A DNA stretch of 32,000 nt. It comes from Candidatus Nitrosopumilus koreensis AR1 (GTDB lineage: Archaea > Thermoproteota > Nitrososphaeria > Nitrososphaerales > Nitrosopumilaceae). The notes under the pieces were generated by a model. It had not been told where the DNA came from. It was given only the letters and a program-made list of their open reading frames with translations, and made no database searches. Positions 8,307 to 24,930 of this stretch are shown here, piece after piece (the first letter of the stretch is position 1; each line of letters starts with the position of its first letter). The stretch covers positions 780,001 to 812,000 of the forward strand of contig NC_018655.1 of assembly GCF_000299365.1 (NCBI RefSeq), read 5' to 3'. The position numbers and the translations under genes are program-made.

Positions 8307-9044
8307 TCAAGGCATCAATCTTGGATGCATTACTTTTATTCCATCATCCCCCAATTCAATAGGGTGAATCTGCTCACTGTGTGCAATTCCTCTTAGTTTT
8401 GTTACTTGAATTGATCTTTCCATGGTATCATGATGTCTAGAATGACGTAGTTGTATCACACCTGAAGATACAAACCATTCAGGAGGGATGTGATCATCAT
8501 TTACGGATTCAGATAGTAGAATTGATGTGACACCATAACTTTCAAGTGCTTGAACTAATCCTTGCAATCCTTGTCTTTTGTTGAATTCATCAGAGTATTG
8601 CATTTCCAAAATGGTAATAGAATCAATCACAACACGTTTTGCTTCTATTCTTTTAATGCTACTAAGAATTAATTTTGTCAAGTGCTCAAATGGTATTTGT
8701 TCGCCCCTATACAACGAATCATCCTTCCCGATAGAGTGATCAGTTATTTGAAAAGGTCTTGCGTCAATCATCAAAATTTTGTCTTTTGATACCAAGTCCT
8801 CAAAATCCCACCCGTGAGCCTTGGAGTCATTTTTTATTTCATCAATATTTTGGGCAAGACTGATGTACACACCAGGTTCATCAAAATCTTTGGCACCTCC
8901 ATGTAAGAATTGTAATCCAAATGTGGTCTTACCTGAACCCGGAGGGCCAGACACAACAACAGAACGACCTTGTTTTAATCCTCCAGACACGATAGAGTCT
9001 AATCCAGAAATTCCTGTTTTTACCTTGGCATATGTTGAGCTCAT
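8307..9044 (-). CDS. Single-domain KaiC-like/RecA-superfamily ATPase
   Basis: GISGLDSIVSGGLKQGRSVVVSGPPGSGKTTFGLQFL (Walker A) and VVIDSITILE (Walker B-like) match the KaiC domain. The ORF extends to 9056, but the TATA box at 9070-9077 favours the ATG at 9044. Confidence 0.85.
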   Translation of the reverse strand: MSSTYAKVKTGISGLDSIVSGGLKQGRSVVVSGPPGSGKTTFGLQFLHGGAKDFDEPGVYISLAQNIDEIKNDSKAHGWDFEDLVSKDKILMIDARPFQITDHSIGKDDSLYRGEQIPFEHLTKLILSSIKRIEAKRVVIDSITILEMQYSDEFNKRQGLQGLVQALESYGVTSILLSESVNDDHIPPEWFVSSGVIQLRHSRHHDTMERSIQVTKLRGIAHSEQIHPIELGDDGIKVMHPRLMP

Positions 9045-9069
9045 ATACAAAAACAAAGTTAATTTTTGT

Positions 9070-9077
9070 ATATAAAG
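9070..9077 (-). promoter_or_regulatory. TATA box (TTTATATA) for the KaiC-like gene
   Basis: The minus strand reads CTTTATATAC, a near-consensus archaeal TATA. It is centred about 29 nt upstream of the ATG at 9044, consistent with a leaderless or short-leader mRNA. Confidence 0.45.
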
Positions 9078-9119
9078 AAGGAGACTAGTTAGATTCTGAC
9101 AGGTATGATTTTACTAAAA

Positions 9120-9965
9120 TTATAAATGAATATTTTTTGATGTATTCCACATTGACTCAAACAACAACTTCATAGAATATACTAATGCTGGAGAATCAGT
9201 CCACATTGCAAACGGTTCATTAGAGTTGTTTGCATTCTTTGTAAAGAACAACAATTCTGAATTATCTTTTAGTATGAAACACAAATTATCTTTGATATCT
9301 TTGTTTATTGATTTAATATTTTTCCTCTCTAGTTCATCAAAGATGTATAATGTTTTATCACTACAAGAACTAAGTATTCTAAATTTCTGTTTTGATTTTT
9401 CAAATGGTTCTATAAAGTCAGCATGATATAATTTTAAGAGATCTTTTTCACTTCCAAGTAACAACAATTCATCGGTATAGCCATCAGTCATACTGGTAAT
9501 TTTTGAGTAGATTTGATTTGTTCCTTTTAGCATTTGGAATTTCTCTTCCTCATTTTCAGGTTCAGAATCAAACGTTGGAATATTTTTCCAAATTTCAGAT
9601 AATTCACCTTCCATTTTTTCAAGGGATTTTACACGTTCTTTTTCAGAATTTACTAAAATCCATATTGCCTTGTCTAAAGGTAATGCAGTAAATTGTATTG
9701 GGTGTTGGAATGTTGCAGAAACAATGCCCTTGTTTTGTAACGCAGATAATAGATGATATGTTTCGGTTCTAGGTAGTTTTAATGCCTTGCAAACTTCAGG
9801 AGCTGTCTTTGCGCCATATTTACCTAGATAAATGTAAACTTTGGATTGATTTCCAGTAAGGCCATATTTTGATAGTTGTTGTTGAACTTGATCTAAGGAT
9901 GATTTGTACTCTCCTAGAGAGGATCCAGACTCAGCATCAAATATGGATATTGCTTGTTCTTTCAT
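9120..9965 (-). CDS. TrmB-family transcriptional regulator (paralog 1)
   Basis: Winged-helix region LSKYGLTGNQSKVYIYLGKYGAKTAPEVCKALKLPRTETYHLLSALQNKGIV plus a TrmB-like C-terminal domain. The ORF extends to 9986, but the TATAAC box (plus 9995-10000) sits 29 nt upstream of the ATG at 9965 (MKEQAISIF). Confidence 0.85.
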   Translation of the reverse strand: MKEQAISIFDAESGSSLGEYKSSLDQVQQQLSKYGLTGNQSKVYIYLGKYGAKTAPEVCKALKLPRTETYHLLSALQNKGIVSATFQHPIQFTALPLDKAIWILVNSEKERVKSLEKMEGELSEIWKNIPTFDSEPENEEEKFQMLKGTNQIYSKITSMTDGYTDELLLLGSEKDLLKLYHADFIEPFEKSKQKFRILSSCSDKTLYIFDELERKNIKSINKDIKDNLCFILKDNSELLFFTKNANNSNEPFAMWTDSPALVYSMKLLFESMWNTSKNIHL

Positions 9966-10030
9966 TTTACAGGATACTCCGTACATAATGCCATGTTATA
10001 GGATCCGATCGTGAGCTCTTTTTGAGTAAA

Positions 10031-10074: not shown

Positions 10075-10620
10075 TCATTTTAAAAGACTCTCCACAAACA
10101 ATGGTTTTTCAAGTTTAGCTGGAACTGTGAACTCTGTTTTAAACTTGAATTTTTCTCGAACTTCTTTAGAGTTTTTTAGCAATGCAATTTCAAACTGTCC
10201 GCCATCTTCATAAACAATTGAATTTAGATTGTTCTTTAATCCTTTTGAAACAAGACCATCCAAAGTCTCTTTTGCAGATTGTAGTTTTTCTAATTTTATT
10301 TTTAGAGATTCAATCTCTTTAAAGTATAACTCCAATTCGCCTTTGATACCCATGCCATTATACAGATTTAATGAATTGTATTTTATCCAATTTGAAGAGG
10401 TTTGTTTTTTTGTCTTTTTTGTCTTTTTTTCATCTGATTTGTCTTCTAATTTTTCTTTAATGGATAAGAATTCCTTATCATTTTCTAATTCTTTTTCTTG
10501 AGATCTTAGCTTTTCACCAGCTATCTTTGAAATTTTTTCCAATTCTTTTTTTGTTTCAACAACATTATTTTCTAGATATGTTTTGAATTCATCAATTACA
10601 TTAAATTTAATTAAACTCAT
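10075..10620 (-). CDS. Hypothetical coiled-coil protein, last gene of the leftward pilin operon
   Basis: 181 aa with long heptad-like E/K-rich stretches and a KKTKKTKK linker. Its ATG (10618-10620) directly abuts the stop of the upstream gene (10621-10623). Confidence 0.6.
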   Translation of the reverse strand: MSLIKFNVIDEFKTYLENNVVETKKELEKISKIAGEKLRSQEKELENDKEFLSIKEKLEDKSDEKKTKKTKKQTSSNWIKYNSLNLYNGMGIKGELELYFKEIESLKIKLEKLQSAKETLDGLVSKGLKNNLNSIVYEDGGQFEIALLKNSKEVREKFKFKTEFTVPAKLEKPLFVESLLK

Positions 10621-11127
10621 TTAGATCACCGGTGTTTGATTTAATTCAAGTTGTCCAATATTTTCAATTTTCTTTAATTCATTATTTGCAGAACGCAAAA
10701 AGTTGATGCTGTTAAGTAATTTCAATTTATCTTTTCTTACTAATTCAACAATTTTTGGAGTAATGTAATCTAAAATGTTTATAATAATATCAGTTGAAAA
10801 ACTATCCATTGTTTTTTCTTCTGTTTTACTATTGGAATCAACAACAAGTATGTTAAGATTGGGTAATAATTTTATGTTGGTGTTTTCATCTAAATGTAAA
10901 ATATTAGAGGGTAATTCAATAGATAATCCCAAAAATTTAGTTATAACTTTTAATGAATTAATCAATTCATCAAGCGTGTTTACTCTTTGATTTTCTAATT
11001 CATAAATCTGTAAAGATTCCTGAATTAAAGATTCCATATATTGTAAGCTTGGGTGATCAGAATTACCTCCTGTTTCTGCAGTTGCTTGGTTTGCATTATT
11101 TTCAAGCGTACTATCCATAATGGTCAT
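10621..11127 (-). CDS. Hypothetical protein, pilin-operon member
   Basis: 168-codon ORF on the same strand, contiguous with the downstream gene. No signal peptide or known motif recognised. Confidence 0.58.
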   Translation of the reverse strand: MTIMDSTLENNANQATAETGGNSDHPSLQYMESLIQESLQIYELENQRVNTLDELINSLKVITKFLGLSIELPSNILHLDENTNIKLLPNLNILVVDSNSKTEEKTMDSFSTDIIINILDYITPKIVELVRKDKLKLLNSINFLRSANNELKKIENIGQLELNQTPVI

Positions 11128-11187: not shown

Positions 11188-13674
11188 CTAAGTGACTGTG
11201 GTGCCTCCGATGTCAATTGTCTTGAAAAATGTTCTTCCTAATTCATCATATCCGGACAGATAGACGTAAAAATTGTAATTTTCTCCAGGCGTAATAGGAG
11301 TTCCATATTGACCATTTATGGAAGGGTGAGTGGTAGGGGCATAGAACTCTATTGTGAATTTTTTTCCAGGAGGCAAATATATGCTATCATTAGTGTCTGA
11401 CATTTCAAATTCTGTACTAGTTCCATTTACAAATTGAGGCAGTGAAGCGTATGCAATATCTGATGTAACATCATCAAAAACTCCACGAATTCCACTCATT
11501 GAAAAAAATGCGCCTATGGTACCAGTATTGGATACTCTAACCAGATAATTTCCGCCATCCTCATTGATATCATATGAAAAATAACCCGGAAAAGTGTCAT
11601 CAGGTATAGGTATCTGAACAAAGGATGTGTCTGGGTTTCCATTGAGTGAGTCATCATCAATTCTAACATCTACTCCCAAACCACTAACAAAATCTACTGT
11701 AAATAATATGCGTTCATCAGTTAAACTGATCTGATTCATTGCACCAGTAAGATTTCCACTAGAATGAAAATTTGTCACATCATTAAGAGGATCAATAAAA
11801 TCCATTTCAATGTCTGTTTGTGAAAACAATGTTGTTTTACCTCCAGAATTATCGACTCTTTCGATTGTATAGTCTACCAAAAATGCACCATCTCCATATT
11901 TTGTATTGTTTAATGCCAGTACTTCACTAGAAGTTAATCCATATGATTCCCAATGCATTATAGAATCAATACTGCCTTTAAAATTCTCAGTAATTTGACC
12001 ATCTTGGGTATCAGGATTTGCTCCAATCATCCACTTAGTATCTATTTCTAGTTGCGAATTATTTGGATTACTTGTATCTTGTTGAGTTACAACAAAAGAT
12101 CCATCTAAATACAAAGTACATGTTTCAGAATCTACACGAATTCCAACAAAATGATGCCATTCATCAGTAGTTACTCCAGAGGTATTACAATCAAGTATTT
12201 TTCCTTCTGTAGAATCAAATCTAAATGACAATGTACCTGTTGTTCCAGATTTATCAAAAACAACCTCATAAAATTCAGAGCCAGGATTGGATTCTTCAGC
12301 CCGGATTATTACTTGCCGGCCATCATTTCCAGTACCATCTACATAAAACCAACCAGCAGTAGAGTTTGGGCCATCATCAAGATCATTACAAGAGGTATCA
12401 ATTCCTACTGAAATGTAATCATTATTCCCATCAAAAGTAAATCCTCCACTGGAAAATACACCACTAGAATCACTCCATGCAGGCGTGCTGGTACCTGAAC
12501 CAAGAGTGGCACTGATTTCATTATCACATGCAGCCCCAGTTACCCCATTAGAAAGAAAAGATTGTTTCTCAAAATGAAATATCATACCACTAGATAAAAT
12601 TGAATTATCTATAGTTGAATCAAGATGGGAATTAAGATAAGCTAAAGATGAAGTCCAAGTTCCAGAAGGTATTGTAACTGTACTTGTTTGGTTATTTGTA
12701 ATGTATGCCATGTTATTTTGATCAAGATCAACGGTAAACCCTGTGGCATCTGCGGTACCAGAGCTTAATTGATATTCGCCATTAGGGGTGTTTGTGGATT
12801 CTTGATGAATTGTAAGAATGTCAGGAGTGTTACTAGGAACTGTAAATCCAAGTGATTCCAAAGAAGTTCCAGCTTCTAATGCCAACAACACGTCTTTAAT
12901 TGTTATAGTTACAGATGAATCATTTCCAGGATATCCATTTACAATAGAACCAGTTATAGTTACAGATTCTGCGGCTGTACCTGAAATGACACAGGACCAT
13001 TTGAAGATTACAGATTCACCTTTTTTCAGAGAAGGGTACGATGCAGGAGTTGGCGAAGAATCACAAATTGCGGTTGCGGAACCTGATGGGGGAGACATCT
13101 CAGGGACAATGTTAAGTAAAGTAACATCATTTGGAAGGTCATTTGTAACAGTCATAAATAATGTTGTAGAAAATCCATTAGCAACGGTTTCAGGAGCTGC
13201 ATGTAAGTTAATAGATAAATTTTGATCAGGAACTGAATTGAAAAAATATGTTTCAGTATTTCCCCGATCAGTAACAAGGGATATTTTATACGCTTGAGTA
13301 TCAACTACAGAAAGCGGAAGGGTTTGTCCAATTCCGCTGACAGAATTTGAAGGAGATATGCTTTGATCAATATCAAATTTTGAAGGAATCCATGTTGAAT
13401 CAGTGGTATTTTCAATCCATAGTTTTGTTAATTTTATTGGAAGTTGGCCTTTGTTTTGAACTGTCAAATCAAATTTGTTGTTTGTAATGGTAGCATCAGA
13501 AATTTCAAAAGATTCAGAATTTCTTGCACCATCAACACTTTCTTTGATTATTACGGCTTGTGAAAAATCATCAATCACATTCATACTATATGACACATAT
13601 GCCACAGTGCTAGAAGCAGCAATTATAAAAAATACTGCACCCACCAGCGTACTTAATGCTCTACGATTTTTCAT
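11188..13674 (-). CDS. Giant (828 aa) type IV pilin-like protein with class III signal peptide, beta-sandwich modules and a LamG/concanavalin-A-like lectin domain
   Basis: The N-terminus MKNRRA|LSTLVGAVFFIIAASSTVAYV is basic, then Ala, then a hydrophobic helix. Residues about 395-595 (nt about 11890-12492) carry the Laminin_G_3 pattern: FTFDGNNDYISV ... TAGWFYVDG ... LSFRFDS ... WHHFVGIRVDSETCTLYLDGSFV. The ATG overlaps the upstream pilin gene by 4 nt. Confidence 0.8.
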   Translation of the reverse strand: MKNRRALSTLVGAVFFIIAASSTVAYVSYSMNVIDDFSQAVIIKESVDGARNSESFEISDATITNNKFDLTVQNKGQLPIKLTKLWIENTTDSTWIPSKFDIDQSISPSNSVSGIGQTLPLSVVDTQAYKISLVTDRGNTETYFFNSVPDQNLSINLHAAPETVANGFSTTLFMTVTNDLPNDVTLLNIVPEMSPPSGSATAICDSSPTPASYPSLKKGESVIFKWSCVISGTAAESVTITGSIVNGYPGNDSSVTITIKDVLLALEAGTSLESLGFTVPSNTPDILTIHQESTNTPNGEYQLSSGTADATGFTVDLDQNNMAYITNNQTSTVTIPSGTWTSSLAYLNSHLDSTIDNSILSSGMIFHFEKQSFLSNGVTGAACDNEISATLGSGTSTPAWSDSSGVFSSGGFTFDGNNDYISVGIDTSCNDLDDGPNSTAGWFYVDGTGNDGRQVIIRAEESNPGSEFYEVVFDKSGTTGTLSFRFDSTEGKILDCNTSGVTTDEWHHFVGIRVDSETCTLYLDGSFVVTQQDTSNPNNSQLEIDTKWMIGANPDTQDGQITENFKGSIDSIMHWESYGLTSSEVLALNNTKYGDGAFLVDYTIERVDNSGGKTTLFSQTDIEMDFIDPLNDVTNFHSSGNLTGAMNQISLTDERILFTVDFVSGLGVDVRIDDDSLNGNPDTSFVQIPIPDDTFPGYFSYDINEDGGNYLVRVSNTGTIGAFFSMSGIRGVFDDVTSDIAYASLPQFVNGTSTEFEMSDTNDSIYLPPGKKFTIEFYAPTTHPSINGQYGTPITPGENYNFYVYLSGYDELGRTFFKTIDIGGTTVT

Positions 13675-14123
13675 GGACTCACCTGGGTTCTGAATTGATT
13701 ATCTCTAGCACTTTTGATCAAAATATCAAATTCAACATCATCAATCCAAGCATAAGTCATGTTTATTGAATAAGATTCAGAAGGGCTCATTCCTCCATCA
13801 TCAATTAACACTGAACTAATTTTTTCAAATGTTGTTGAGTTAATAAATTGAATATTTGTTACATTTAATCCAACATTTCCAGTATTAGTCATGGTTACAT
13901 TGACATATTTAGAAGGATTTGTTCCAAACCATATTTTTTCAAATATAATGTGCTCATTTAGTTTATTGATATTTTTTGAAAAAGTATTTTCAAGATTTTT
14001 TTGATGAGACAATAAATTAGAATTGGACCATCCGACCAAACCCGCGCCAAGAATTGCAATAGATGATAATAGAATGGCACTAGTGACAATAGAAGCTAAG
14101 GCTCTCCTACGAACAAATTTCAT
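13671..14123 (-). CDS. Type IV pilin-like protein (150 aa, class III signal peptide)
   Basis: The N-terminus MKFVRRRA|LASIVTSAILLSSIAILGAGLV is followed by a small beta-rich domain (VNVTMTNTGNVGLNVTNIQFI). A TATA-like CAATATAC (plus 14147-14154) ends about 24 nt upstream of the ATG. Confidence 0.75.
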   Translation of the reverse strand: MKFVRRRALASIVTSAILLSSIAILGAGLVGWSNSNLLSHQKNLENTFSKNINKLNEHIIFEKIWFGTNPSKYVNVTMTNTGNVGLNVTNIQFINSTTFEKISSVLIDDGGMSPSESYSINMTYAWIDDVEFDILIKSARDNQFRTQVSP

Positions 14124-14184: not shown

Positions 14185-14823
14185 TTATGATGATGCAGAC
14201 TCGTTAATTTTCTTATTTAAAACGGAATTGATGGTATCTATTTTTTGTTTTAATTCATCAGAAGGGTTTTCTGAATGTTGATTGCTAAGATCAATTTGCA
14301 GTTTTGTTAATTCCTCTGTAGACATTTGATCAAATTCAGAATCTGCCGATTTTATTTCATCTGAATATGTTACTTCTTTTTCATTTGTTGATTCCTCTGT
14401 TTGTTCTTTTACATCTTCAGAAATTGACTCTAATTCTGAAGAGTGTTCTGTTTGTTCAGAAAGATCCATTGTTTTGCTAATCTCATATGGTGGACATGGG
14501 ATTTTCATGCTCTTAGTTAGCATGAACAACACAGGGTATAATTCCTGATAAGACATGCGTAAAATTTGAGGGATGTTTTGTTCATCTTTTTGATATAATG
14601 ATTCTAATTCTGAAGAATTTCCGTTAACGTCAATTTTTCCTTCCAAGCTTAGACGAATCCCTTTAGGTGCAGAGCTAAAGGTATAGCCATATTGTAATTG
14701 ACAAGAGTTTTCAGCACTGGAAACCTCGTTTAATGACACATCAATGTCATATTTTTTAAAATCTGTTTTCTCTTTGACATTATTATTTACATTGAATGAT
14801 TCAATGTCCAAATTGAACTGCAT
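14185..14823 (-). CDS. Hypothetical protein with acidic C-terminal half
   Basis: 212-codon ORF with no signal peptide. The C-terminal half is rich in E/S/D (SEQTEHSSELESISEDVKEQTEESTNEKE). It is divergent from the AAA/vWA operon across only 67 nt. Confidence 0.6.
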   Translation of the reverse strand: MQFNLDIESFNVNNNVKEKTDFKKYDIDVSLNEVSSAENSCQLQYGYTFSSAPKGIRLSLEGKIDVNGNSSELESLYQKDEQNIPQILRMSYQELYPVLFMLTKSMKIPCPPYEISKTMDLSEQTEHSSELESISEDVKEQTEESTNEKEVTYSDEIKSADSEFDQMSTEELTKLQIDLSNQHSENPSDELKQKIDTINSVLNKKINESASS

Positions 14824-14890
14824 TTGAAAGTAGAATCAAAAATTGTGTATTAACAAAGTGTCTGTCATTTCAAGTTACATCATTTCGAAT

Positions 14891-15928
14891 ATGAGCAATA
14901 ATAATGATTTAAAAATAATGCAAATAGAGGATTTTGCCCAAAAGAACACTGTAAAGAAGAAAAATTTTAATTTAAATTTTACAATTTCAAAAGCTCCCAA
15001 AAAAGCCAAGAAATTAGATTTACATCAAGATATTTCAAATTATCTGGACAAAAATCAGTATTCATTTAGTGAAGATATGCAAGAGATGATTCCAAAAGAC
15101 ACTCCTCCATATTTGGATAATGGGGAAAAGTATGTAGAAAGAATTGCAAGAGCTTTAAAGTTTTTTAAACAATGTTCTTTGATTGGCCCCAGCGGAACTG
15201 GAAAAACACACATTGTTTATTTGGTTGCTGAATTAGCAGGTCTGCCATTATGGGAAATTAATTGTGGATTACAAACATCTGTTTTTGATCTTTTTGGAAG
15301 ATATGTAGGATTGGGAAAAGAGAACTGGATTGATGGATTGATTGTAAACTGGTGTAGAGATGGAGGAATATTGTATCTTGATGAGGCAAACATGATGAAA
15401 CAAGATGTTGCAACACGATTAAACCCTATTCTTGATCAGAGAGGACATCTTGTGTTAACAGAAAAAGATAATGAACTTATCCATAGACACGAACATGCAT
15501 ATCTGATAATCAGCATGAATCCTTTTTCATCAGAATTTGCAGGAACAAAGCCACTCAATGCTGCAATGAGAAGAAGGATGAGCGTTTGGTTAAATTTTGA
15601 TTACATGAGTGTGGGAGATAAAATTGATGAAAAAGAAATTGATCTTGTATGTCACAGAGCAAAAGTAAACAGAGACGATGCAGAAAAAATTGTCAAGATA
15701 GGTGCAAAACTAAGGCAAGAATATCAACAAGGTGATCTTCCATATGGTCCATCAGTTGGAGATTTGGCAAATTGGGCAAAAATTGTTGCAGATGGAACAA
15801 CGGTGGAAATTGCAGCAGAAGAGACAATCATAGCATTAACTGCAGATGATTTTGAGGTTCAAGAAGAAGTTCGTGCAATTGTAAAACGAGTTTGCGGAGG
15901 AGATAAGTTTGAAAGAAAATTTGTATGA
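14891..15928 (+). CDS. AAA_5 (MoxR/CbbQ/NorQ-type) ATPase
   Basis: Walker A LIGPSGTGKTHIVYLVAE, Walker B GGILYLDEANMM, and LIISMNPFSSEFAGTKPLNAAMRRRM (sensor/Arg-finger region) are typical of dynein-related AAA_5 ATPases. The ORF opens at TTG 14843, but the ATG at 14891 (MSNNND) is preferred. Confidence 0.85.
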   Translation: MSNNNDLKIMQIEDFAQKNTVKKKNFNLNFTISKAPKKAKKLDLHQDISNYLDKNQYSFSEDMQEMIPKDTPPYLDNGEKYVERIARALKFFKQCSLIGPSGTGKTHIVYLVAELAGLPLWEINCGLQTSVFDLFGRYVGLGKENWIDGLIVNWCRDGGILYLDEANMMKQDVATRLNPILDQRGHLVLTEKDNELIHRHEHAYLIISMNPFSSEFAGTKPLNAAMRRRMSVWLNFDYMSVGDKIDEKEIDLVCHRAKVNRDDAEKIVKIGAKLRQEYQQGDLPYGPSVGDLANWAKIVADGTTVEIAAEETIIALTADDFEVQEEVRAIVKRVCGGDKFERKFV

Positions 15929-17471
15929 TCTATCTGCAAACATCATCTATGAAGTAGCAGACAAAGAAAAAACAAGCATTGAAGTAACAATGCCTGAAAA
16001 ATTATCTTTTTTAGAACTAAAGTACGGAAAACCCACACAAATATCCCTTCCAAAACCAAAAAAAAGTGATGAAAAATGTCTCTATCAAGGCATTCTGTTT
16101 GATAGTATAGATGACTCGTATTCTACAGTGTGGTCTTTGTTTTTAGCATCATTGTATCACTCTGGAGGCCATGCTGCAGTTTCAGATTATTCAGTATATC
16201 AAAAATGGTATCAGAGAAAATCCCCAATCTTAGCATCTCAAGCAATTAAATTTGTGGAAGACATCAGAGTTCAGGAATATCTAAAAACCAGATATTCAAA
16301 TCCTTTAAAAAATATTGAAATGATTAAATTTTCTTGTGAATTGTTGTACAACAAATTTTTGAAAAACATCCTAGAGTCAAATGAAAAAAATAGAACACAG
16401 CATGCATTTAGAAATAAAATAGAACACTTCAGAAATGAAGTAAAAGAATCTATAACAAATAATGACACTCCTGAAAACAGGATTAAACTTGCAGATGAAA
16501 TTTACAAAAACAGATATGCTTTAGGAATGTGGGAATATCCATTTTGCGACAACATCAAACCAACAAACTTTACAAAATATTTGAAATATTTGAAATTAAA
16601 TCCTACTGGAGAATTCAGACACTATGCTAACGAATTAGGCAATATGTGGATAGACGAAATTAAAAAAGAAGAAAAAATGATGGAAAAATACAAAAAATAT
16701 TCTGAAGGATTACGTTTTGACAAAATCAAACTAGCACCAGAAAATCTTGGAAAATTTTTTCAGTTGAGAGTAGATAGTACAAATTTTATTAAAAAAATTA
16801 GAAGTCAAGTATCGAATGTAACAAACTCCATGGAAGATCCAAATACTGAAGATTATGGTTACATTGAAATGCAAAAAGCAGTTCAGGCAGTTGCAAGTGA
16901 AAGTCAAGGAATTTCTTATTTTGAGCAAGATCAAGAACTTCGTTATGAGGAAAGCTGGGCAATAGTTATGGATACTAGTGCAAGTATGAAAATTCAGTTT
17001 CAGGATTTACAGAAATTTTTGATGTGTATTGCAGAAGCTGCAGACAAAATAAACTACAAGGGAGGAAAATGGTCCATACATGGTTTTAGCAATGATTTTG
17101 TGCTGATTAAAGATTTCAAAGAAAAGTATGATGACAGAATCAAGGCCAGGATAGGAGGAATGAACAGTTCAGGATTATCATTTGTTCCAGATGCCATGAA
17201 ATTGGCAACAAGAATGCTAGAAGACGACATCAATGAACGCAGATACTTGTTCCTAATTACCGATGGATACATGATGGGGTATCATGAAATTGACGAAGAG
17301 TTTCAATCTGCTATTAATCTGGCCTCCAAGGCAGGCGTAAATGTAATAGCAATAGGCGTACCTGATGGAATGTCAAAATATTTCACAGTTAGTTTCCCTC
17401 ATACTGAGATTAGAAAGACAGTTGCAAACTTTGTTCGCGCCTATACATCTGTGGCACAACAATACATGTAA
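15909..17471 (+). CDS. von Willebrand factor A (vWA) domain protein, NorD/CbbO-like architecture
   Basis: The C-terminal vWA domain has the MIDAS motif WAIVMDTSASMK (DxSxS) and ...LFLITDGYMMG.... There is a long helical N-terminal region and no signal peptide. The TTG start at 15909 is preceded by GGAGG (15896-15900) and overlaps the AAA gene by 20 nt. Confidence 0.8.
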   Translation: MKENLYDLSANIIYEVADKEKTSIEVTMPEKLSFLELKYGKPTQISLPKPKKSDEKCLYQGILFDSIDDSYSTVWSLFLASLYHSGGHAAVSDYSVYQKWYQRKSPILASQAIKFVEDIRVQEYLKTRYSNPLKNIEMIKFSCELLYNKFLKNILESNEKNRTQHAFRNKIEHFRNEVKESITNNDTPENRIKLADEIYKNRYALGMWEYPFCDNIKPTNFTKYLKYLKLNPTGEFRHYANELGNMWIDEIKKEEKMMEKYKKYSEGLRFDKIKLAPENLGKFFQLRVDSTNFIKKIRSQVSNVTNSMEDPNTEDYGYIEMQKAVQAVASESQGISYFEQDQELRYEESWAIVMDTSASMKIQFQDLQKFLMCIAEAADKINYKGGKWSIHGFSNDFVLIKDFKEKYDDRIKARIGGMNSSGLSFVPDAMKLATRMLEDDINERRYLFLITDGYMMGYHEIDEEFQSAINLASKAGVNVIAIGVPDGMSKYFTVSFPHTEIRKTVANFVRAYTSVAQQYM

Positions 17472-17525: not shown

Positions 17526-18155
17526 ATGAAAATGACCCCTCTACGAAATAATCGCAGAGCAATCAGTACAGTACTTACAACCATCATCATCTTGGTGGCT
17601 TCTGTTGTACTTGGTTCAGGTGTAGTTGTTTACGGCACATCACTTTTCCAAGGCGGTACACAACAAGAAGCAATTTCAGTCCAAGGTGTCCAGTTGTGGG
17701 TTAATGCTACTGATTCAAACGGCGTTGCATGGGGTGCTGCTGCTGTAAGAAACAGTGGTGACAAAATCTTGTCTACAGACAAGATAGAAGTCAGAGGTAC
17801 TAACGTTCCATTCTCAGCCTGGTATGTAGACACAGATCCAGACAGAGTAACGGTAGATAACTTCCAGGCACAATTCATTTCAACCGGAACTGTTTCAGGT
17901 CAAATGCAATCTACAGGTTCAACATGTGCATCTGCAGATCTTGAAATTGATCTGGATGATGCAGGTGCATTACCAGCATTATGTATGACCAAACAATCAG
18001 GTCCTGTTGGTTTGAATCCAGGTGACAGAATGATCATCTACTTCAAAGTTCCAGATGGAACTCTATCATCACTTGATGCAGGAGCAACATCTAGCTTGAA
18101 TATCTTCGCCGGAAAAACTGGTGCACCACAAAGTGTAACCATCGCAAATACTTAG
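17526..18155 (+). CDS. Type IV pilin (209 aa), candidate major pilin, class III signal peptide
   Basis: MKMTPLRNNRRA|ISTVLTTIIILVASVVLGSGVVVYGTSLF resembles Aap/Ups-type archaeal adhesive pilin N-termini and lacks the GIGTLI-type archaellin motif. The globular part is rich in G/T/S/A. The gene appears to have its own promoter and terminator. Confidence 0.8.
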   Translation: MKMTPLRNNRRAISTVLTTIIILVASVVLGSGVVVYGTSLFQGGTQQEAISVQGVQLWVNATDSNGVAWGAAAVRNSGDKILSTDKIEVRGTNVPFSAWYVDTDPDRVTVDNFQAQFISTGTVSGQMQSTGSTCASADLEIDLDDAGALPALCMTKQSGPVGLNPGDRMIIYFKVPDGTLSSLDAGATSSLNIFAGKTGAPQSVTIANT

Positions 18156-18209: not shown

Positions 18210-19739
18210 ATGAAGGATAAAACAAAGTCTGTAGAAACTTTTCTTAAAAGTGAGTTTTTTGATCCAAATCAAAAACAAGCTTCATCAGAATTAAAGATTA
18301 TAAAAAATTATGAACTGAATGCACCATACAGTTATGCAAATATTTTGTATAATGAAAAAAATTCCAGTTATGAATACCAAATTGATGAGATTAAATTAAA
18401 TCATGAAGAGCAAGAAATTTTTAACAAATTATACCAATTATTAGAGGAAAGCATAGACTCTGTAAAAAATGCAAAAGGAGATAATTTTGAAAGTTTTCTA
18501 AATACCATAATTGATGAAAATAAAAAATTATTTGAAAGATATCCTGTAGCAAGTTTGGAGAAAGTAAAATATTATCTTAGACGAGACATCTCAGGATTTG
18601 GAATCATTGATGGATTGATGTGGGATCCTAATATTGAGGATATCAGTTGTGCTGGAATCAATACTCCAATTTACATTTGGCACAGACAATACGACAGCAT
18701 CCCAACAAATATTCAATTTGAACCAAGTAATCTAAACAATTTTGTGTCTAGAATTGTATTTCGTGCAGGAAAACATGTTAGTTCTGCACATCCAATCACA
18801 GATTTAGCATTAGAAGGCAATCACAGAATCTCAGTTCTGTATCAAAAAGAGGTAACACCAAAAGGTACCAGTTTCACTATTAGAAAATTCAAAGAAGATC
18901 CATACACAATTGTTGATTTGATAGACTTTGAGACAATGGATACGTCAATGGCGGCATATCTATGGTTGTTAATGGAGGCAAAGATGTCCATAATGGTGAT
19001 TGGTTCAACAGGTAGTGGAAAAACTACCATTCTTAATGCAATAACTGGGTTGGTCAATCCAGATTACAAGATATTTTCAGTTGAAGATGTATCTGAAATT
19101 AACATAAAACATGAGAACTGGTTTAGTCTGATTTCAAGACCGGGTTTTGGAACACAAGGAGAGGGCGAAATTGGACTGTATGATTTGATAAAATCAGGAG
19201 TAAGACACAGACCAGATTACATTATAGTAGGAGAGATTAGAGGCTCTGAAGCTTATGTGATGTTTCAAGCAATGGCAACAGGTCATGGAGGATTGTGTAC
19301 AATGCATGCAGATAGTTTGATTTCTGCAACAAAAAGACTTCAACAAAAACCAATGGAGATTCCACCATCATACATGACTTTGATGAACTGTGCAATTGTG
19401 ATTAAACGAGTAAAAGACAATGAGACAAATCAAAGTACAAGAAAGATAGTTTCGATTGAAGAGATTAAAGACAGTAATTCATTTAATTCTGTTTTCAAAT
19501 GGAATGCAAAAAACAAAACATTTGATTCAGAGATTGAAAAAAGCGAGATGGTAAAAAGAATTGCAGAGTCACAAGGTCAAGCAGTTAATGAGTTAATTGA
19601 TGAATACAAAAAAAGAGTTTCAATTCTAAAATATCTCAAAGATCATAATATTCGAGACTATAAAGAGACAAGTGATTTTATTGGAAGATATTATAGAAAC
19701 CCAAATGAAATTCTAGAAAAAATTCATTATGAGGTGTAA
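18210..19739 (+). CDS. Type IV pilus/archaellum assembly ATPase (ArlI/FlaI, PilB/TadA superfamily, T2SSE domain)
   Basis: Walker A VIGSTGSGKTTILNAI, Asp/Walker B box RHRPDYIIVGEIRGSEA and His box ATGHGGLCTMHA. 509 aa with an N-terminal domain typical of FlaI-like ATPases. Confidence 0.92.
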   Translation: MKDKTKSVETFLKSEFFDPNQKQASSELKIIKNYELNAPYSYANILYNEKNSSYEYQIDEIKLNHEEQEIFNKLYQLLEESIDSVKNAKGDNFESFLNTIIDENKKLFERYPVASLEKVKYYLRRDISGFGIIDGLMWDPNIEDISCAGINTPIYIWHRQYDSIPTNIQFEPSNLNNFVSRIVFRAGKHVSSAHPITDLALEGNHRISVLYQKEVTPKGTSFTIRKFKEDPYTIVDLIDFETMDTSMAAYLWLLMEAKMSIMVIGSTGSGKTTILNAITGLVNPDYKIFSVEDVSEINIKHENWFSLISRPGFGTQGEGEIGLYDLIKSGVRHRPDYIIVGEIRGSEAYVMFQAMATGHGGLCTMHADSLISATKRLQQKPMEIPPSYMTLMNCAIVIKRVKDNETNQSTRKIVSIEEIKDSNSFNSVFKWNAKNKTFDSEIEKSEMVKRIAESQGQAVNELIDEYKKRVSILKYLKDHNIRDYKETSDFIGRYYRNPNEILEKIHYEV

Positions 19740-19742
19740 AAA

Positions 19743-21191
19743 CTGCTTTCACTGAAAGACAGTCAAAAGAAAATCGACAAAAAGGAAAAAACAAAACTAG
19801 AAAGAGAAATTCCTTATTTTATCACATTTGTTACATTATTAGCAACAAGTGGATTTGGACCATACACAATATTTGAAAAGATAAAAAATTTTGATATTTT
19901 GCCACATACACAGACTCAAGCAAAAAGAATACTGAAAAGAATAGAGATTTTGGGCATGGATCCAATATCGGCCATAACTCAAGCAAAAGACAAGACATCA
20001 TCAAAGACAATGTCAGATTTTCTTGGAGGTTATGTTTCAGCAATAGAGGGAGGAGGAGATGTAGTAAATTATCTAAAAAGCAAGATGAATGGAGCATTTG
20101 ACTCCTATGCTGAAACAGAAAAACAAAAGATCAGCAAAGTAAAGGCACTTGTAGAGTCATACATGACAATACAAATAGTAATTTTAGCAGTATACATTAT
20201 ATTTTCAGCAGTTGGTTCAGGTACAGACCCAACAGCATTAGCTCAGAATTCAGGTGACAACTCACAACTATTGTTGATTGTAATTCCGCCAATAATATCC
20301 GCAGCATTTATCTTTCTTGCAAGTAAAACAAATTCTTCATTCTTACCAGAAATGCCAGTAAAACAAATTGCAATGTACACAATTCCAATATGCAGTATTG
20401 GTTTTACAATTACATTATTGGGAATCATCAAAGAGTACAATGCATTTATCATGATGTTTTCTCTAGTGGCTGCAGCAGTATTTCCTGCAATGAAATTTAA
20501 AAGAACATATCAACGATCAATTGATGCTGAAAATGCTACTCCAAGAATAATGAGAGATATTGCTGAGTCAAGAAAAGCAGGAACTAGTCCAGAAAAATGT
20601 GTAATCCGGGCATGTAAAAGTAAAGATTACAAATTATTTACATCAACATCCAATACAATAGGAAGTAAATTGGAATGGGGCATACCATTTGATGATATTT
20701 TTAATTCATTGAAAAAAGAGATTAAAGATTTTCAAGTCTTGATTAATTTTAAGATCTTGTTTGAAATCATTTCAGGAGGAGGAGGAAACATCCATACACT
20801 GATATCTCTTGCAGATATTTCAGAAAAAATCCACAGCATTGAGAAAACAAAACGCAGTTTACTTAAACCATACATAATGATTGGATTCATTTTGATGGGC
20901 ATGACAGGATTAACAACATTACTGGTAATTGATTCACTTGCAAGCATAGGAATTCAGTCTGAAACAGATTCTGAAAGGATTGCATTAATGGAGAAAAATT
21001 CACAAGAAAGTTTTGAAATGTATTCAATTGTCATTCTGATTCAAGGATGGTTAGCAGGCATATTCTTAGGAAAAGTAGTCACAGGCACATATTCAGGAGG
21101 ATTCCAATACTCAATAATTTTGGTGTTGATTGCGTTTGGAAGCATCATGCTTATTCAGAGTTCAATTGTAAGCATTGGCGCCCTGTTCTAG
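19743..21191 (+). CDS. Type IV pilus platform membrane protein (ArlJ/FlaJ, TadC family, two T2SSF-like domains); start codon unresolved
   Basis: Polytopic membrane protein with duplicated motifs (RILKRIEILGMDPISAI...GGGDVVNYL and RDIAESRKAGTSPEKCV...GGGGNIHTLI). The listed ORF starts at TTG 19899. However, 53 upstream in-frame sense codons (19740-19898) encode ...REIPYFITFVTLLATSGFGPYTIFEKI..., which belongs to the domain. No ATG, GTG or TTG occurs in that stretch, so the start given here (CTG 19743) is provisional. Confidence 0.82.
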   Translation: MLSLKDSQKKIDKKEKTKLEREIPYFITFVTLLATSGFGPYTIFEKIKNFDILPHTQTQAKRILKRIEILGMDPISAITQAKDKTSSKTMSDFLGGYVSAIEGGGDVVNYLKSKMNGAFDSYAETEKQKISKVKALVESYMTIQIVILAVYIIFSAVGSGTDPTALAQNSGDNSQLLLIVIPPIISAAFIFLASKTNSSFLPEMPVKQIAMYTIPICSIGFTITLLGIIKEYNAFIMMFSLVAAAVFPAMKFKRTYQRSIDAENATPRIMRDIAESRKAGTSPEKCVIRACKSKDYKLFTSTSNTIGSKLEWGIPFDDIFNSLKKEIKDFQVLINFKILFEIISGGGGNIHTLISLADISEKIHSIEKTKRSLLKPYIMIGFILMGMTGLTTLLVIDSLASIGIQSETDSERIALMEKNSQESFEMYSIVILIQGWLAGIFLGKVVTGTYSGGFQYSIILVLIAFGSIMLIQSSIVSIGALF

Positions 21192-21250: not shown

Positions 21251-23863
21251 TTGAAGACTGTCTTAGTGATACTTTTAGTTCTAGTTGTGGTTGGAGGAGG
21301 AGTACCAATAGATGCCCAATCCAATTTTGGAGTACAGAATCCATTTGATAAACAACCTGACTTGGAATTTGGATATCAATTACATCCACAAAAATTCTTG
21401 GAAAATACAGAAGGCATAATCAACATACATGCATTAAACAATGAAAACATTTTACCAGTTGAGATAAACGGATTAAAAGTATCTAGTTCAGACAACACAA
21501 TAGTAGCAATTACAGGAATCAGTAATGCAGAAAACTATTCGACAGAAATCAAAATATTGGCAAAAGAACCAGGTTTTGCAAACATATCTCTTGCAGCACC
21601 AGGATTCAAATCACAAGAAATTCCAATAGTTATCTACAACAACAACAATCATCCAACCCAAATATTACTAAAAACAACTCCAAATGATTTTCCAGTAGAT
21701 GGCCCAAAATTTGGATATATCGGAATTGAGCTTGCAACTACAGGCAATTTACCCGTAATTGCAACAGAAGACACCATTGTAAAAATTTCCACTCCAAATA
21801 CAAATGTGATAAAATTACAAGAGTCAGAGATTACAATACCAAAAGGAGAATATTATACACTGACAAAATTCAACATAAAAGAATCAGGAGATGCAATTAT
21901 ATTTGCAGAAACAGAAGGGATGAAAAAAGTTAGCCAATTCATCCATGTCAGGGAAGCAAAAACACCGTTACAATTACAACTATATGTTTTTCCAAAAAAT
22001 TTCAATAGCTTTTCATCACAAACAGGCTATGCAATTGTTCAATTACAAGATGCTGAAGGAATACCTGTAAAAGCAGACAAGAATATTAATTTGAAAATAG
22101 GAGTAGAAAACCCAGATTCAGGAATTAATACCAGTCATGATTTTGAAGAATTTTTGTTTGCGTCAAATGAATTAGAGATAAAAGAAGGAAGTTATTCCAC
22201 ATTTAGTAGTTTTTCAATAAGACCAAATGTTGCAGATTTTACAGATGAATTTGTGCAATCATACAATTTTTACATTATAGCAGATGATCATATCGCAAAA
22301 GGGGATTCTATTACAGTTACACATGATGAAATAGGAGCCATAGAAGGAAAGGGTCCAGCAATAACACAAACACTCCCATTTTTAACAACAGGTGAAAAAG
22401 AGCTTGTAGGAGTAACATATTTTGAAACAGAAGTTGAGGTTTCAAGACAGTTAGGAACAAGTACATTAGGCAAGACAGATAGAGAAACAGTTACAGTTTC
22501 AGTACCCGTAGTAGCAAGTGAAGATCTTTTTGTCAATGTTGCATCATCAAACTTGAAAACGGTGGATGCAGAAAATGCGTTTATTCCAAAGGGGAAAAAT
22601 ACTGGTTTGATTTTTGGAAATACTGGAACAATGATTCCAGATGAAGGAGAATCTCTTGAATTCTATATTACTGATAACAAGAAATCTTCAACAGTTGCAG
22701 GAGAACCAAACGGTCCATTGGAAGATGATCTTTCGTTAATTGTAGAGCCACTTATTCCAAAGATTCTTGCATATTCACAATTTCCAATAATTGGGTATCT
22801 GTTAGAAAGTCCTGAAGAGGATGAGGAAGTTACAACTGCAGATGATGAGGAAGAAGAGGAAGACGGACGAATAGGAGTTACTCATTTTATCAAAGATTCA
22901 GTCATGACATTTAGTGCTAATGAGAATTTTGAGATTCCACCAGAAGTGATAACACAAAATCAAGAGTATGCTGTAATTTTTGGTCAATCAAATAAGATAG
23001 GTACTAGCAGCATGACAGTTCAAGCCACAGGTATGGAAACAGGATTAAGTTTAGAGAGTCACACTACAGATCCAACCAACATAGAGTTATCCGTATCTAA
23101 GAACATCCTTCCCATGACCAAAAACTTGGCATCAATCCAGCTTTTAGACTCTGTTGGGAATCCTGCATATGCTAAAAACCAAATCACATTAGAGATCGTA
23201 TCAAATAATCAATATTCTTTGAAATTACCTGAGAATATAGTAATTGAAAAAGGGGAATATTTCAAATCATTTGAGATAGAATCATTTTCAGAAGGCACTA
23301 CAGAAATCACTATGTTAGCAGAAGACTTGCCAATGCATAATTTTGAATTAACTGTTAATGGATTTCATCCCGAAATATCACTAGTTGCGCCTAACTCAAT
23401 TGATCAAGGTACACAAATAACTGCAGAGTTGTTATTAGATTATCCAACATCAACATTATCTGTAGAAAATTTTGATGTAAATTGGAATGTTATTGGCGGA
23501 AAAATAATTGAACAAGAAACCACAACAGATAGTGACGGAAAAGCTAGAATCACAATAGATGAAATCAAATCAGAGAGTCTAGAGATTTATGCATCAGTTG
23601 AAGGATTAGGATTTACAAATCTAGAAATAAATAAAACAATCAAAGTTATTCCTGCTCCCATCACAGATGCAGTAACTGAAGAAACAAATAATGAAATATT
23701 TACTGAAAATAATTTCATATTGTTTGCAATTCCAGGTGCAGCAGGAGCTGCATTCTTTTATCTAAGAAAAACAAATCGCTTAGAAGAGATCACAGAAAGA
23801 TTTAACATATCTGAGAAAATTGAAGAGATAAAAGAAAGAGTTTCAAGCATTAGAGAAAGGTAA
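21251..23863 (+). CDS. Large secreted, C-terminally membrane-anchored surface protein with repeated Ig-like (Big_2-like) modules and an acidic linker
   Basis: TTG start. Sec-type signal MKTVLVILLVLVVVGGGVPIDAQS. Recurring module ends (EPGFANISLAAPGF, GDAIIFAETEGM, GTSSMTVQATGM, GTTEITMLAEDL, ESLEIYASVEGLG). Acidic tract EEDEEVTTADDEEEEEDG at about nt 22810-22870. C-terminal helix FILFAIPGAAGAAFFYL followed by RK. Confidence 0.7.
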   Translation: MKTVLVILLVLVVVGGGVPIDAQSNFGVQNPFDKQPDLEFGYQLHPQKFLENTEGIINIHALNNENILPVEINGLKVSSSDNTIVAITGISNAENYSTEIKILAKEPGFANISLAAPGFKSQEIPIVIYNNNNHPTQILLKTTPNDFPVDGPKFGYIGIELATTGNLPVIATEDTIVKISTPNTNVIKLQESEITIPKGEYYTLTKFNIKESGDAIIFAETEGMKKVSQFIHVREAKTPLQLQLYVFPKNFNSFSSQTGYAIVQLQDAEGIPVKADKNINLKIGVENPDSGINTSHDFEEFLFASNELEIKEGSYSTFSSFSIRPNVADFTDEFVQSYNFYIIADDHIAKGDSITVTHDEIGAIEGKGPAITQTLPFLTTGEKELVGVTYFETEVEVSRQLGTSTLGKTDRETVTVSVPVVASEDLFVNVASSNLKTVDAENAFIPKGKNTGLIFGNTGTMIPDEGESLEFYITDNKKSSTVAGEPNGPLEDDLSLIVEPLIPKILAYSQFPIIGYLLESPEEDEEVTTADDEEEEEDGRIGVTHFIKDSVMTFSANENFEIPPEVITQNQEYAVIFGQSNKIGTSSMTVQATGMETGLSLESHTTDPTNIELSVSKNILPMTKNLASIQLLDSVGNPAYAKNQITLEIVSNNQYSLKLPENIVIEKGEYFKSFEIESFSEGTTEITMLAEDLPMHNFELTVNGFHPEISLVAPNSIDQGTQITAELLLDYPTSTLSVENFDVNWNVIGGKIIEQETTTDSDGKARITIDEIKSESLEIYASVEGLGFTNLEINKTIKVIPAPITDAVTEETNNEIFTENNFILFAIPGAAGAAFFYLRKTNRLEEITERFNISEKIEEIKERVSSIRER

Positions 23864-24234: not shown

Positions 24235-24930
24235 ATGGAAACAATTCCAGAGATTTTTTTGATAAGAATCGGTCTGGCATTAGGAATGCTTGCCATAGGA
24301 GGATTTTTTGATATTTGGAAAAGAGAAGTGCATGATTATCTTTGGATTGTTTTCGGAGTAGCAGGAGCAATATTACTAATTTTTGAACCAAATCAAACAG
24401 ATATAATTTACTCAACACTATTTGCGTTGATCATTGCGCCAATTTCTATACTAATTTGGAGAATGGGATTATTTGGCGGAGCAGATGCTTTTGCATTAAT
24501 TGCACTAGCAGTAATAGCGCCACAAATTACAATTAGTGGAAATATTGTTACACCATTTACGACGTTATCAAATGCTGCAGTATTATTCATAGTTCCATTA
24601 TTAGTAAATGCATTGAGAAATACAATTTCAAAAATTAGAGGAGAGAATATTTTTGAAGGATTTGATGAAACATTACCCAGAAAAATTCTAGCATCATTCT
24701 TAGGATATAGAGCAAAAAATCCAAAATATTGTTTTTCAATTGAGAAAAATGAAGGATCTGTTAAAAAAATAGCATTTTCATTTCACCATGCAGACAATGA
24801 AGAATTTTCAGAAAAACCAAACACATGGGTTACCCCTGGAATCCCATATCTGTTATTAATTATTGGAGGTTTCTTGATTCAATTAGGATATGGAGACATA
24901 ATTCTAATCGGTATGGGTATGGGGCCATAA
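24235..24930 (+). CDS. Prepilin/prearchaellin signal peptidase (peptidase A24, FlaK/PibD type)
   Basis: Polytopic membrane protein with both catalytic-Asp contexts (GGFFDIWKREVHD and LFGGADAFALIALAV). GGTGAT Shine-Dalgarno at 24223-24228, with a TTTTATAG box about 45 nt upstream. Confidence 0.85.
   Translation: METIPEIFLIRIGLALGMLAIGGFFDIWKREVHDYLWIVFGVAGAILLIFEPNQTDIIYSTLFALIIAPISILIWRMGLFGGADAFALIALAVIAPQITISGNIVTPFTTLSNAAVLFIVPLLVNALRNTISKIRGENIFEGFDETLPRKILASFLGYRAKNPKYCFSIEKNEGSVKKIAFSFHHADNEEFSEKPNTWVTPGIPYLLLIIGGFLIQLGYGDIILIGMGMGP

Follow-up and report, generated by a model that had tools for sequence, protein, structure and literature searches.

A pilin fused to a LamG domain in a type IV pilus locus of Candidatus Nitrosopumilus koreensis AR1 as a putative tip adhesin

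A 32,000-nucleotide stretch of the genome of Candidatus Nitrosopumilus koreensis AR1 (contig NC_018655.1, positions 780,001 to 812,000, hereafter the window, whose numbering is used throughout) contains the gene for an 828-amino acid (aa) protein, WP_016939373.1, bearing the database title "LamG-like jellyroll fold domain-containing protein". On balance, this gene probably encodes a minor, modular type IV pilin of a subclade-4A pilus, which would act as a tip adhesin together with a small partner pilin. A short earlier note, made by a model from the same DNA without database searches, had described a pilin fused through a beta-sandwich stalk to a LamG domain, and the pilin module, the second beta-sandwich (B2) and the LamG domain were each found in the protein. 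A pilin-LamG fusion has not been described in archaea before and has already been shown in bacteria; the new elements are the previously overlooked gene and its architecture, while the design principle was known from bacteria and the locus had been catalogued.

The open reading frame (ORF) was confirmed to be intact with an ATG start, and the peptides quoted in the earlier note were located at aa 412 (FTFDGNNDYISV), aa 439 (TAGWFYVDG) and aa 506 (WHHFVGIRVDSETCTLYLDGSFV). Database searches returned 20 full-length homologues with 28-75% identity, all from Nitrosopumilaceae, and an exhaustive profile search with aa 1-262 retrieved 1236 cluster representatives, including 186 at E<1e-30, the match lying nearly always at the extreme N-terminus. 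The 20 homologues and these 186 clusters exclude a chance ORF. The mature product has a predicted mass of about 88 kDa and a predicted isoelectric point of 4.05; the protein is very acidic (net charge -67), contains six cysteines and has a single hydrophobic segment at aa 6-24, with no second membrane anchor. The gene, its domains and the partner gene are the following, with the evidence for each (pLDDT, predicted local distance difference test score of the structural model).
11188..13674, minus strand: 828-aa modular pilin gene, WP_016939373.1 (ATG start, uninterrupted ORF)
13516..13674, minus strand: class-III signal peptide MKNRRA/LSTLV and hydrophobic alpha-1 helix, aa 1-53 (motif scan, model helix, conservation)
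13234..13515, minus strand: pilin beta-sandwich, aa 54-147 (profile match to 8FK7; pLDDT 83-89)
12889..13233, minus strand: second beta-sandwich B2, a CARDB/DUF11-like stalk domain, aa 148-262 (pLDDT 80-87; repeats in giant proteins)
12445..12888, minus strand: low-confidence linker (LNK) followed by PRE, the first half of a head domain specific to the family, aa 263-410 (pLDDT; LamG-less variants keep PRE)
11890..12444, minus strand: LamG/ConA-like jelly-roll cassette, aa 411-595 (Pfam PF13385, PDB profile, Foldseek)
11191..11889, minus strand: family-specific C1 and C2 immunoglobulin (Ig)-like beta-sandwich domains, aa 596-828 (separate model, pLDDT 77.9)
13671..14123, minus strand: 150-aa partner pilin, NKOR_04805, arCOG01824 (leader motif, paralogy, overlap)

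The pilin leader was investigated by a FlaFind-type scan of the six reading frames, in which the motif [KR][GA][ALIFQMVED][ILMSTAV][TSA] had to occur in the first 20 residues and to be followed by a hydrophobic stretch of 20 aa. Exactly three ORFs of the window were returned, coding for the 828-aa protein (RRA/LST), the 150-aa protein (RRA/LAS) and a 209-aa protein (RRA/IST). The leader of the 828-aa protein reads MKNRRA/LSTLVGAVFFIIAASSTVAYV, with a mean hydropathy of 1.82, so that the pilin leader claimed in the earlier note was recovered. The motif is kept in 18 of the 20 homologues, the remaining two being gene calls truncated at the N-terminus. Moreover, conservation within the close clade is highest in the helix (87% identity) and lowest in LamG and PRE (60-62%); this is the pattern expected of an assembly handle with a diversifying binding head.

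Comparison of the family profile with all PDB sequences resulted in a match to 8FK7 (E 5.3e-6, aa 4-142 against chain residues 5-138), the 144-aa filament subunit of the archaeal type IV pilus of Pyrobaculum calidifontis (PMC10334743). Since this alignment spans the leader, the helix and the entire beta-sandwich, aa 1-147 represent a complete archaeal pilin module and not a mere signal anchor. The Pyrobaculum protein is a stand-alone filament subunit, whereas the 828-aa protein extends 680 residues further, displaying the organization that defines a modular pilin, i.e. a pilin module followed by a non-pilus functional module (PIL-B2-...-LamG, PIL being the pilin module). All three pilins of the window also gave weak matches to the UpsA model, the top NCBIfam model for each of them. 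The pilin homology of the 828-aa protein therefore rests on the 8FK7 profile match, the weak UpsA matches and the genomic context.

The genomic context is provided in the first place by the gene of the 150-aa protein, which lies directly upstream. The tetranucleotide ATGA at 13671-13674, read directly in the sequence, holds both the start of the 828-aa gene and the stop of the 150-aa gene, and this overlap of 4 nucleotides (nt), reported in the earlier note, is kept in 9/9 machinery-linked loci. A genome scan for large-pilin loci returned 26 loci, and in all 21 that include the upstream region the small pilin gene directly precedes the large one. Satellite pairs located elsewhere in the genome show a gap of 5-45 nt in place of the overlap. 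HHalign relates the small pilin family to the carrier module of the large pilin (97.7%, E 1.4e-12), which identifies them as paralogues, and the family profile of the 150-aa pilin also matched the filament-forming 8FK7. When the 150-aa and 209-aa pilins were compared with the PDB as single sequences, only spurious matches appeared (e.g. Chs6, photosystem subunits), and a family profile was needed. From the overlap, the earlier note had suggested a minor-pilin/adhesin pair of fixed stoichiometry; the coupling was borne out, as the large gene forms a tight pair with the gene of a paralogous small pilin and both belong to a complete type IV pilus locus, and a fixed stoichiometry may be supposed.

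Satellite small/large pairs, consisting of a 153-aa pilin and a LamG-containing pilin of about 804 aa, were observed outside the pilus locus, at distances of up to tens of kb (L009/L011, L004-L006, L013-L015); in these pairs the two genes are separated by 29-45 nt. L009 and L011 share contig JAILWG010000001.1, where the linked and the satellite pair lie about 44 kb apart. As the satellite copies sit outside the pilus locus, some genomes encode at least two divergent LamG-pilin pairs.

The genes around the 828-aa gene make up, together with it, a complete type IV pilus locus of subclade 4A, with an ATPase, a platform, a prepilin peptidase and a candidate major pilin.
17526..18155, plus strand: 209-aa pilin, NKOR_04825, arCOG03871, candidate major pilin (class-III motif; UpsA E 2.6e-8)
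18210..19739, plus strand: type IV filament assembly ATPase, FlaI/UpsE/BasE-like (T2SSE E 2.2e-36)
19743..21191, plus strand: TadC/UpsF-like membrane platform, T2SSF (conserved N-terminus implies a CTG start at 19743)
24235..24930, plus strand: prepilin peptidase A24, PibD/FlaK-like (both catalytic aspartates, D26 and GGAD84)

The peptidase, the ATPase and the platform are all encoded within 11 kb, and the 209-aa pilin is directly upstream of the ATPase, the usual position of a major pilin; it has the leader alone in common with the large pilin and its small partner. The NCBIfam FlaI model gave 355 bits on the ATPase, under its cutoff of 550 bits, and BasE and BasF were second-rank for ATPase and platform respectively. 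UpsF was the best model for the platform, its score, like those of UpsA on the three pilins, lying far below the equivalog cutoff. No archaellin gene was found in the window. The entire arrangement recurs in eight other loci with sufficient flank, from Nitrosarchaeum, Nitrosotenuis and Nitrosopumilus. In AR1, the mechanically called platform ORF has a TTG start at 19899 and codes for 430 aa; the reading frame stays open through the 52 codons upstream of this position, whose translation shares 79% identity with the N-terminus of a Nitrosarchaeum homologue (L001). The TTG start of this homologue corresponds to CTG at 19743-19745 in AR1. The AR1 platform protein either begins at this rare type of start codon or is truncated at its N-terminus.

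The remaining portion of the protein was examined in an AlphaFold2 model calculated with the 20 homologues as input, which showed a mean pLDDT of 70.9 and a predicted template modelling (pTM) score of 0.41; because of these values the single domains are credible and their relative arrangement is not. The model consists of a long helix (aa 12-53), two beta-sandwiches (aa 56-145 and 154-261, pLDDT 80-89), a disordered segment (aa 263-311, pLDDT <50), a beta region (aa 313-400, pLDDT 55-78) and a jelly-roll spanning roughly aa 411-595 (mostly with pLDDT 82-91), followed by further beta domains up to the C-terminus. The two beta-sandwich modules described in the earlier note were thus found. The designation of the second of them (B2) as CARDB-like is supported at the superfamily level, through the B2-type repeats of other proteins that are called CARDB/DUF11, although no significant Pfam CARDB match was obtained in the 828-aa protein itself.

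The B2-type domain also occurs as tandem repeats in giant proteins of 3,200-6,900 aa (P0039, P0101, P0135, P0141, P0168, P0170), with 7-23 repeats per protein by the local hidden Markov model (HMM) and up to 57 matched stretches in the aa 1-262 profile search. The two giant proteins scanned with Pfam were both assigned CARDB/DUF11; the C-terminal end is a beta-propeller in P0135 and a Por secretion tail in P0170. The B2 stalk domain is therefore a common building block of very large surface proteins.

Several lines of evidence identify the LamG domain. Pfam Laminin_G_3 (PF13385) matched aa 415-585 with E 1.6e-13 and 51.5 bits against a cutoff of 27.6, while Laminin_G_2 (PF02210) marginally exceeded its own (23.2 bits against 22.9). 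Profile matches to LamG/LNS domains in the PDB comprised the S-layer protein 4QVS, pappalysin-2, neurexin, pikachurin and perlecan LG3, and Foldseek superimposed the modelled jelly-roll on perlecan LG3 with a root mean square deviation (rmsd) of 4.0 A over 161 columns, returning the jelly-roll of clostridial neurotoxin HCN as well. In the viral library, the matches of this region were phage LamG-like structural proteins. The homologue alignment showed invariant columns at C496 and C519 within the cassette. The Laminin_G_3 assignment of the earlier note was therefore confirmed by both profile and predicted fold, whereas the CARDB and archaeal pilin (Pilin_N) models, which it had also suggested for the HMM search, gave no significant match in the 828-aa protein. 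Domains related to this cassette typically serve receptor or glycan recognition and, by analogy, a lectin activity is putative here.

Two other readings of the head were discarded. A glucanase was ruled out as the GH16-type catalytic motif E-x-D-x-x-E (ExDxxE) occurs nowhere in the 828-aa protein. A neurotoxin Hc-like two-domain unit, raised by whole-chain Foldseek matches to tetanus and botulinum toxins, was dropped because the rmsd amounts to about 20 A and a separate model of the C-terminal 233 aa is Ig-like and not beta-trefoil, so these matches reflect the jelly-roll only. The last 233 aa gave generic Ig-like fold matches (ApaG, TRAP-beta, chaperone-usher proteins), none of them at E<=0.001, and searches for relatives of this region beyond its own family retrieved only fragments of the same family.

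The earlier note had not recognized that LamG is a cassette nested in a family-specific head and that the last 230 aa form two extra Ig-like domains. Discrete architectures were mapped with family-specific HMMs on 150 listed representatives (of the 1236) and on the homologues from the earlier searches. Proteins of about 830 aa show the order PIL-B2-LNK-PRE-LAMG-C1-C2, and those of about 590 aa retain PRE-C1-C2 and have no LamG. Longer forms of about 1000-1040 aa carry about 200 aa extra ahead of LamG, and one of 1241 aa has a double LamG. Other forms include one of about 800 aa with an unannotated insert of about 400 aa, and two groups of about 400-460 aa and about 555 aa with different, unannotated heads. 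The pilin-plus-stalk carrier is always N-terminal, and what varies is the head (LamG, none, an extra insert, two LamG). In the alignment to the LamG-less forms, about 290 residues including LamG stand in place of about 50 between two conserved strands, so that the LamG cassette sits inside a beta domain specific to the family.

A third pilin gene was observed in two loci (L016 8440-9954 and L022 3531-4991), between the small pilin and a carrier pilin of about 400 aa. Its product has a class-III-type N-terminus resembling that of the small pilin, followed by PA14 and SpaA-type prealbumin-like domains, and is a second kind of modular pilin within the same system.

Taken as a minor pilin, the 828-aa protein might function as follows. 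The A24 prepilin peptidase of the locus would cut the precursor after Ala6 (RRA/LSTLV), and the alpha-1 helix with the first beta-sandwich (aa 7-147) would behave as a normal archaeal pilin module, which the FlaI/UpsE-like ATPase, together with the TadC platform, would insert into a filament having the 209-aa pilin as its main component. The remaining 75 kDa or so, comprising the CARDB-like stalk, the flexible linker and the Ig-like head with its nested LamG, would be unable to pack at every lattice position, and for this reason the protein is expected to be low-copy. Pili grow from tip to base, which makes a tip location the most probable one. There, the protein might co-assemble with its translationally coupled 150-aa paralogue as an initiating and capping complex. 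The acidic LamG head would then bind a ligand, the candidates being glycans on particles, extracellular polymers or the S-layers of other cells, and this binding would result in attachment or aggregation. S-layer glycans of neighbouring cells could serve as the ligand by analogy with the Ups pili of Sulfolobus.

A number of observations weigh against this interpretation. The UpsA score of the 828-aa protein was 20.1 bits against a cutoff of 130, Pfam Pilin_N (archaeal) and N_methyl (bacterial) gave no match in it at E<=1, and in the AlphaFold2 model its N-terminal helix has low pLDDT, the pTM of 0.41 referring to the entire chain. The arCOG of the 150-aa partner (arCOG01824) is that of FlaF, which in archaella is not a filament protein. 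As for the lectin part, many members of the PF13385 superfamily bind proteins or have no assigned ligand. Furthermore, the platform N-terminus has no canonical start codon in AR1, where expression of the machinery may therefore be weak or its function impaired. Finally, the searchable literature holds no experiments on pili, processing or binding in any Nitrosopumilaceae.

The classification of the partner leads to the alternative that survives best, although we regard it as unlikely. Like the archaellar ArlF/ArlG proteins, the pair might be an envelope strut or anchor that stays at the machine base as a short pseudo-periplasmic stalk, where LamG would grip the glycosylated S-layer, anchoring the pilus motor or opening the S-layer. 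Besides arCOG01824, the 150-aa protein, and it only, gave a very weak ArlF match (E 0.007, 16.5 bits against a cutoff of 110); the pair is encoded apart from the major-pilin/ATPase operon, together with three soluble proteins, and a modelled rod of about seven beta-domains could plausibly span the pseudo-periplasm. However, the profiles of both proteins matched the filament-forming 8FK7, with no ArlF or ArlG chain among the PDB matches at E<=1 for either of them. The extra satellite pairs that many genomes carry far from any machinery, with heads that differ between copies, fit diversified ligand recognition better than a fixed structural anchor, and the existence of LamG-less heads excludes gripping of the S-layer by LamG as the core role of the family.

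Slightly less probable still is a bindosome-like surface display without polymerisation, in which the leader would serve only for export and for membrane or pseudopilus tethering of a substrate- or particle-capturing protein. Non-pilin substrate-binding proteins of Sulfolobales also use class-III signal peptides (PMC4858521), and the second-rank BasE and BasF matches of ATPase and platform point in the same direction. On the contrary, neither a solute-binding-protein domain nor an ABC transporter was found in the locus, the N-terminal 147 aa are a complete pilin module and therefore more than a leader, and a dedicated paralogous partner pilin is conserved.

We consider it improbable that the pair is an assembly primer only, nucleating the pilus like the bacterial HIJK complex, with the large head as a steric cap devoid of a specific ligand. 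The bulky K-type cap subunits of bacterial tip complexes provide a precedent (PMC9934059), and the strict pairing with its 4-nt overlap suggests a stoichiometric complex. A passive cap, though, would not be expected to gain binding modules repeatedly (LamG, double LamG), nor to occur in several divergent copies per genome. Priming is in any case compatible with a role as tip adhesin and not exclusive of it. Lastly, the 828-aa protein can hardly be the major subunit of a thick, decorated filament since, despite its complete pilin module, it is an 88-kDa protein with a flexible linker, far bigger than the matched 144-aa pilin, its head architecture is too variable for a lattice-forming subunit and the small 209-aa pilin occupies the usual major-pilin position beside the ATPase.

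The closest counterpart of the proposed tip adhesin is PilC of Streptococcus sanguinis, a pilin joined to an Ig-like and a ConA-like lectin domain, which binds glycans and owes its stability in a tip complex to the small pilin PilA (PMC9934059). The two systems share the order of the modules, with the pilin followed by an Ig-like domain and then by the ConA-like/LamG jelly-roll, and the small dedicated partner pilin. PilC is a low-abundance protein and proposed to be the ligand-binder at the tip, the same role proposed here for the 828-aa protein. Differently from PilC, the latter has an archaeal-type pilin module (RRA/L, no Glu5, a beta-sandwich homologous to the P. calidifontis pilin), a LamG nested in a family-specific head with two extra Ig-like domains, nearly double the size and a lectin activity that is putative. 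PilC was absent among the PDB profile matches at E<=1 and among the 50 Foldseek matches listed. The bacterial IPR012902-type methylation motif requires Gly at -1 and Glu at +5, and the 828-aa protein has Ala and Val at these positions; these residues and the absence of an N_methyl match make it an analogue, and not a member, of the bacterial modular pilins. The earlier note had called the presentation of a lectin on a pilin unusual, which is overstated, as the modular pilins of bacteria carry ConA-like/PF13385 modules as some of their most frequent cargo (PMC8179133), and PilC is a proven pilin-lectin.

Within archaea, the Ups pili of Sulfolobales (UpsA/B, UpsE, UpsF) supply the best NCBIfam models for the pilins (UpsA) and the platform (UpsF) of the window. 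Ups pili mediate species-specific aggregation via recognition of S-layer glycans; their pilins are small, and recognition is credited to the major pilin and not to a fused lectin domain. Class-III signal peptides are borne in Sulfolobales by non-pilin substrate-binding proteins as well, as mentioned above. With the laminin and perlecan LG domains, neurexin, pikachurin, the neurotoxin HCN and phage LamG-like tail proteins, the 828-aa protein has in common the jelly-roll fold and the PF13385/PF02210 signature.

More tentatively, and with the balance tilting somewhat against it, the Nitrosopumilaceae might have an independently evolved archaeal counterpart of the PilA-PilC tip complex, in which a carrier always paired with a small paralogous pilin presents exchangeable heads and the resulting programmable repertoire of pilus-tip adhesins decides the targets of attachment (particles, sediment, hosts or each other). 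The repertoire may comprise heads with a nested LamG, two LamG, no LamG or other folds and PA14 on a sister pilin, with several divergent pairs per genome. Ammonia-oxidising archaea are among the most abundant microbes of oceans and sediments, with hardly anything established about their attachment to particles, sediment grains, sponges or each other. If the proposal is true, a lineage-variable, pilus-borne binding head would offer a molecular handle on free-living versus attached lifestyles, and the strategy of placing a binding module on a pilin, established in bacteria, would have arisen in archaeal type IV pili as well. The family has been invisible to pilin searches because its members are labelled only "LamG domain-containing protein".

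The same locus was listed as subclade 4A in Table S4 of Makarova et al. 2016, where the genome coordinates equal those of the window plus 780,000 (PMC4858521). That table assigns the 150-aa protein to arCOG01824 (FlaF-like), the 209-aa protein to arCOG03871 (pilin) and an 870-aa protein to arCOG11936 (type IV pilus-associated surface protein). Between gene indices 918 and 920, index 919 is a 79-aa plus-strand ORF at 792986..793225 (window 12986-13225) (PMC4858521). Since the three indices are consecutive, the 828-aa gene was absent from the annotation used for that census. In AR2, the syntenic large gene codes for 552 aa, overlaps its small partner by 4 nt and is listed as "Pilin, FlaG/FlaF/PilA family", and relatives of the 828-aa protein were classed as pilins (arCOG03871) in the same work (PMC4858521), which makes no mention of a LamG or lectin module, of variation in the head cassette or of a conserved pilin pair. 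The NKOR_048xx locus tags are not mentioned in the literature searched, and some papers state that Nitrosopumilus has no pili at all. Table S4 also shows, in a second pilus locus of AR1, a gene-free segment of 2.8 kb (871739-874514) at the place where AR2 has a surface protein of 2.7 kb; owing to this gap, other large AR1 ORFs may have been missed.

The pilus locus includes further genes, listed below with their positions.
8307..9986, minus strand: TrmB-family regulator and single-domain KaiC/ArlH-like ATPase (syntenic with the locus)
10075..11127, minus strand: two conserved soluble proteins downstream of the large pilin, 168 aa (arCOG11534) and 181 aa (arCOG11968)
14185..14823, minus strand: 212-aa acidic protein, arCOG05517, no transmembrane segment (first gene of the pilin-pair operon)
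14843..17471, plus strand: paired genes of a MoxR/GvpN/CbbQ-type AAA ATPase and a vWA protein (flanked by the two divergent pilin operons)
21251..23863, plus strand: 870-aa acidic secreted protein, arCOG11936 (directly after the platform gene)

The 212-, 168- and 181-aa proteins gave neither transmembrane segments nor domain matches, and they share the operon orientation of the pilin pair and are syntenic across genera. The 168-aa protein (10621-11127) is acidic and the 181-aa protein (10075-10620) is rich in Lys and Glu, both being encoded on the minus strand. The 870-aa protein has a net charge of -71, a Sec-type signal peptide with no further hydrophobic segment and a weak Big_1 match, and is kept in related loci. 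Further plus-strand genes of the locus code for a TrmB regulator, a receiver domain protein and a histidine kinase. A scan for sigma-70 promoters and terminators gave background level only, with a model that is inapplicable to an archaeon anyway. The MoxR/vWA pair is retained in every complete related locus, and its linkage to thaumarchaeal subclade 4A had already been noted, as had the regulators of the locus (PMC4858521). At the edge of the window, an ORF at 7-480 on the plus strand matches the catalytic domain of adenylate/guanylate cyclases (E 9e-9) and probably has no relation to the pilus locus.

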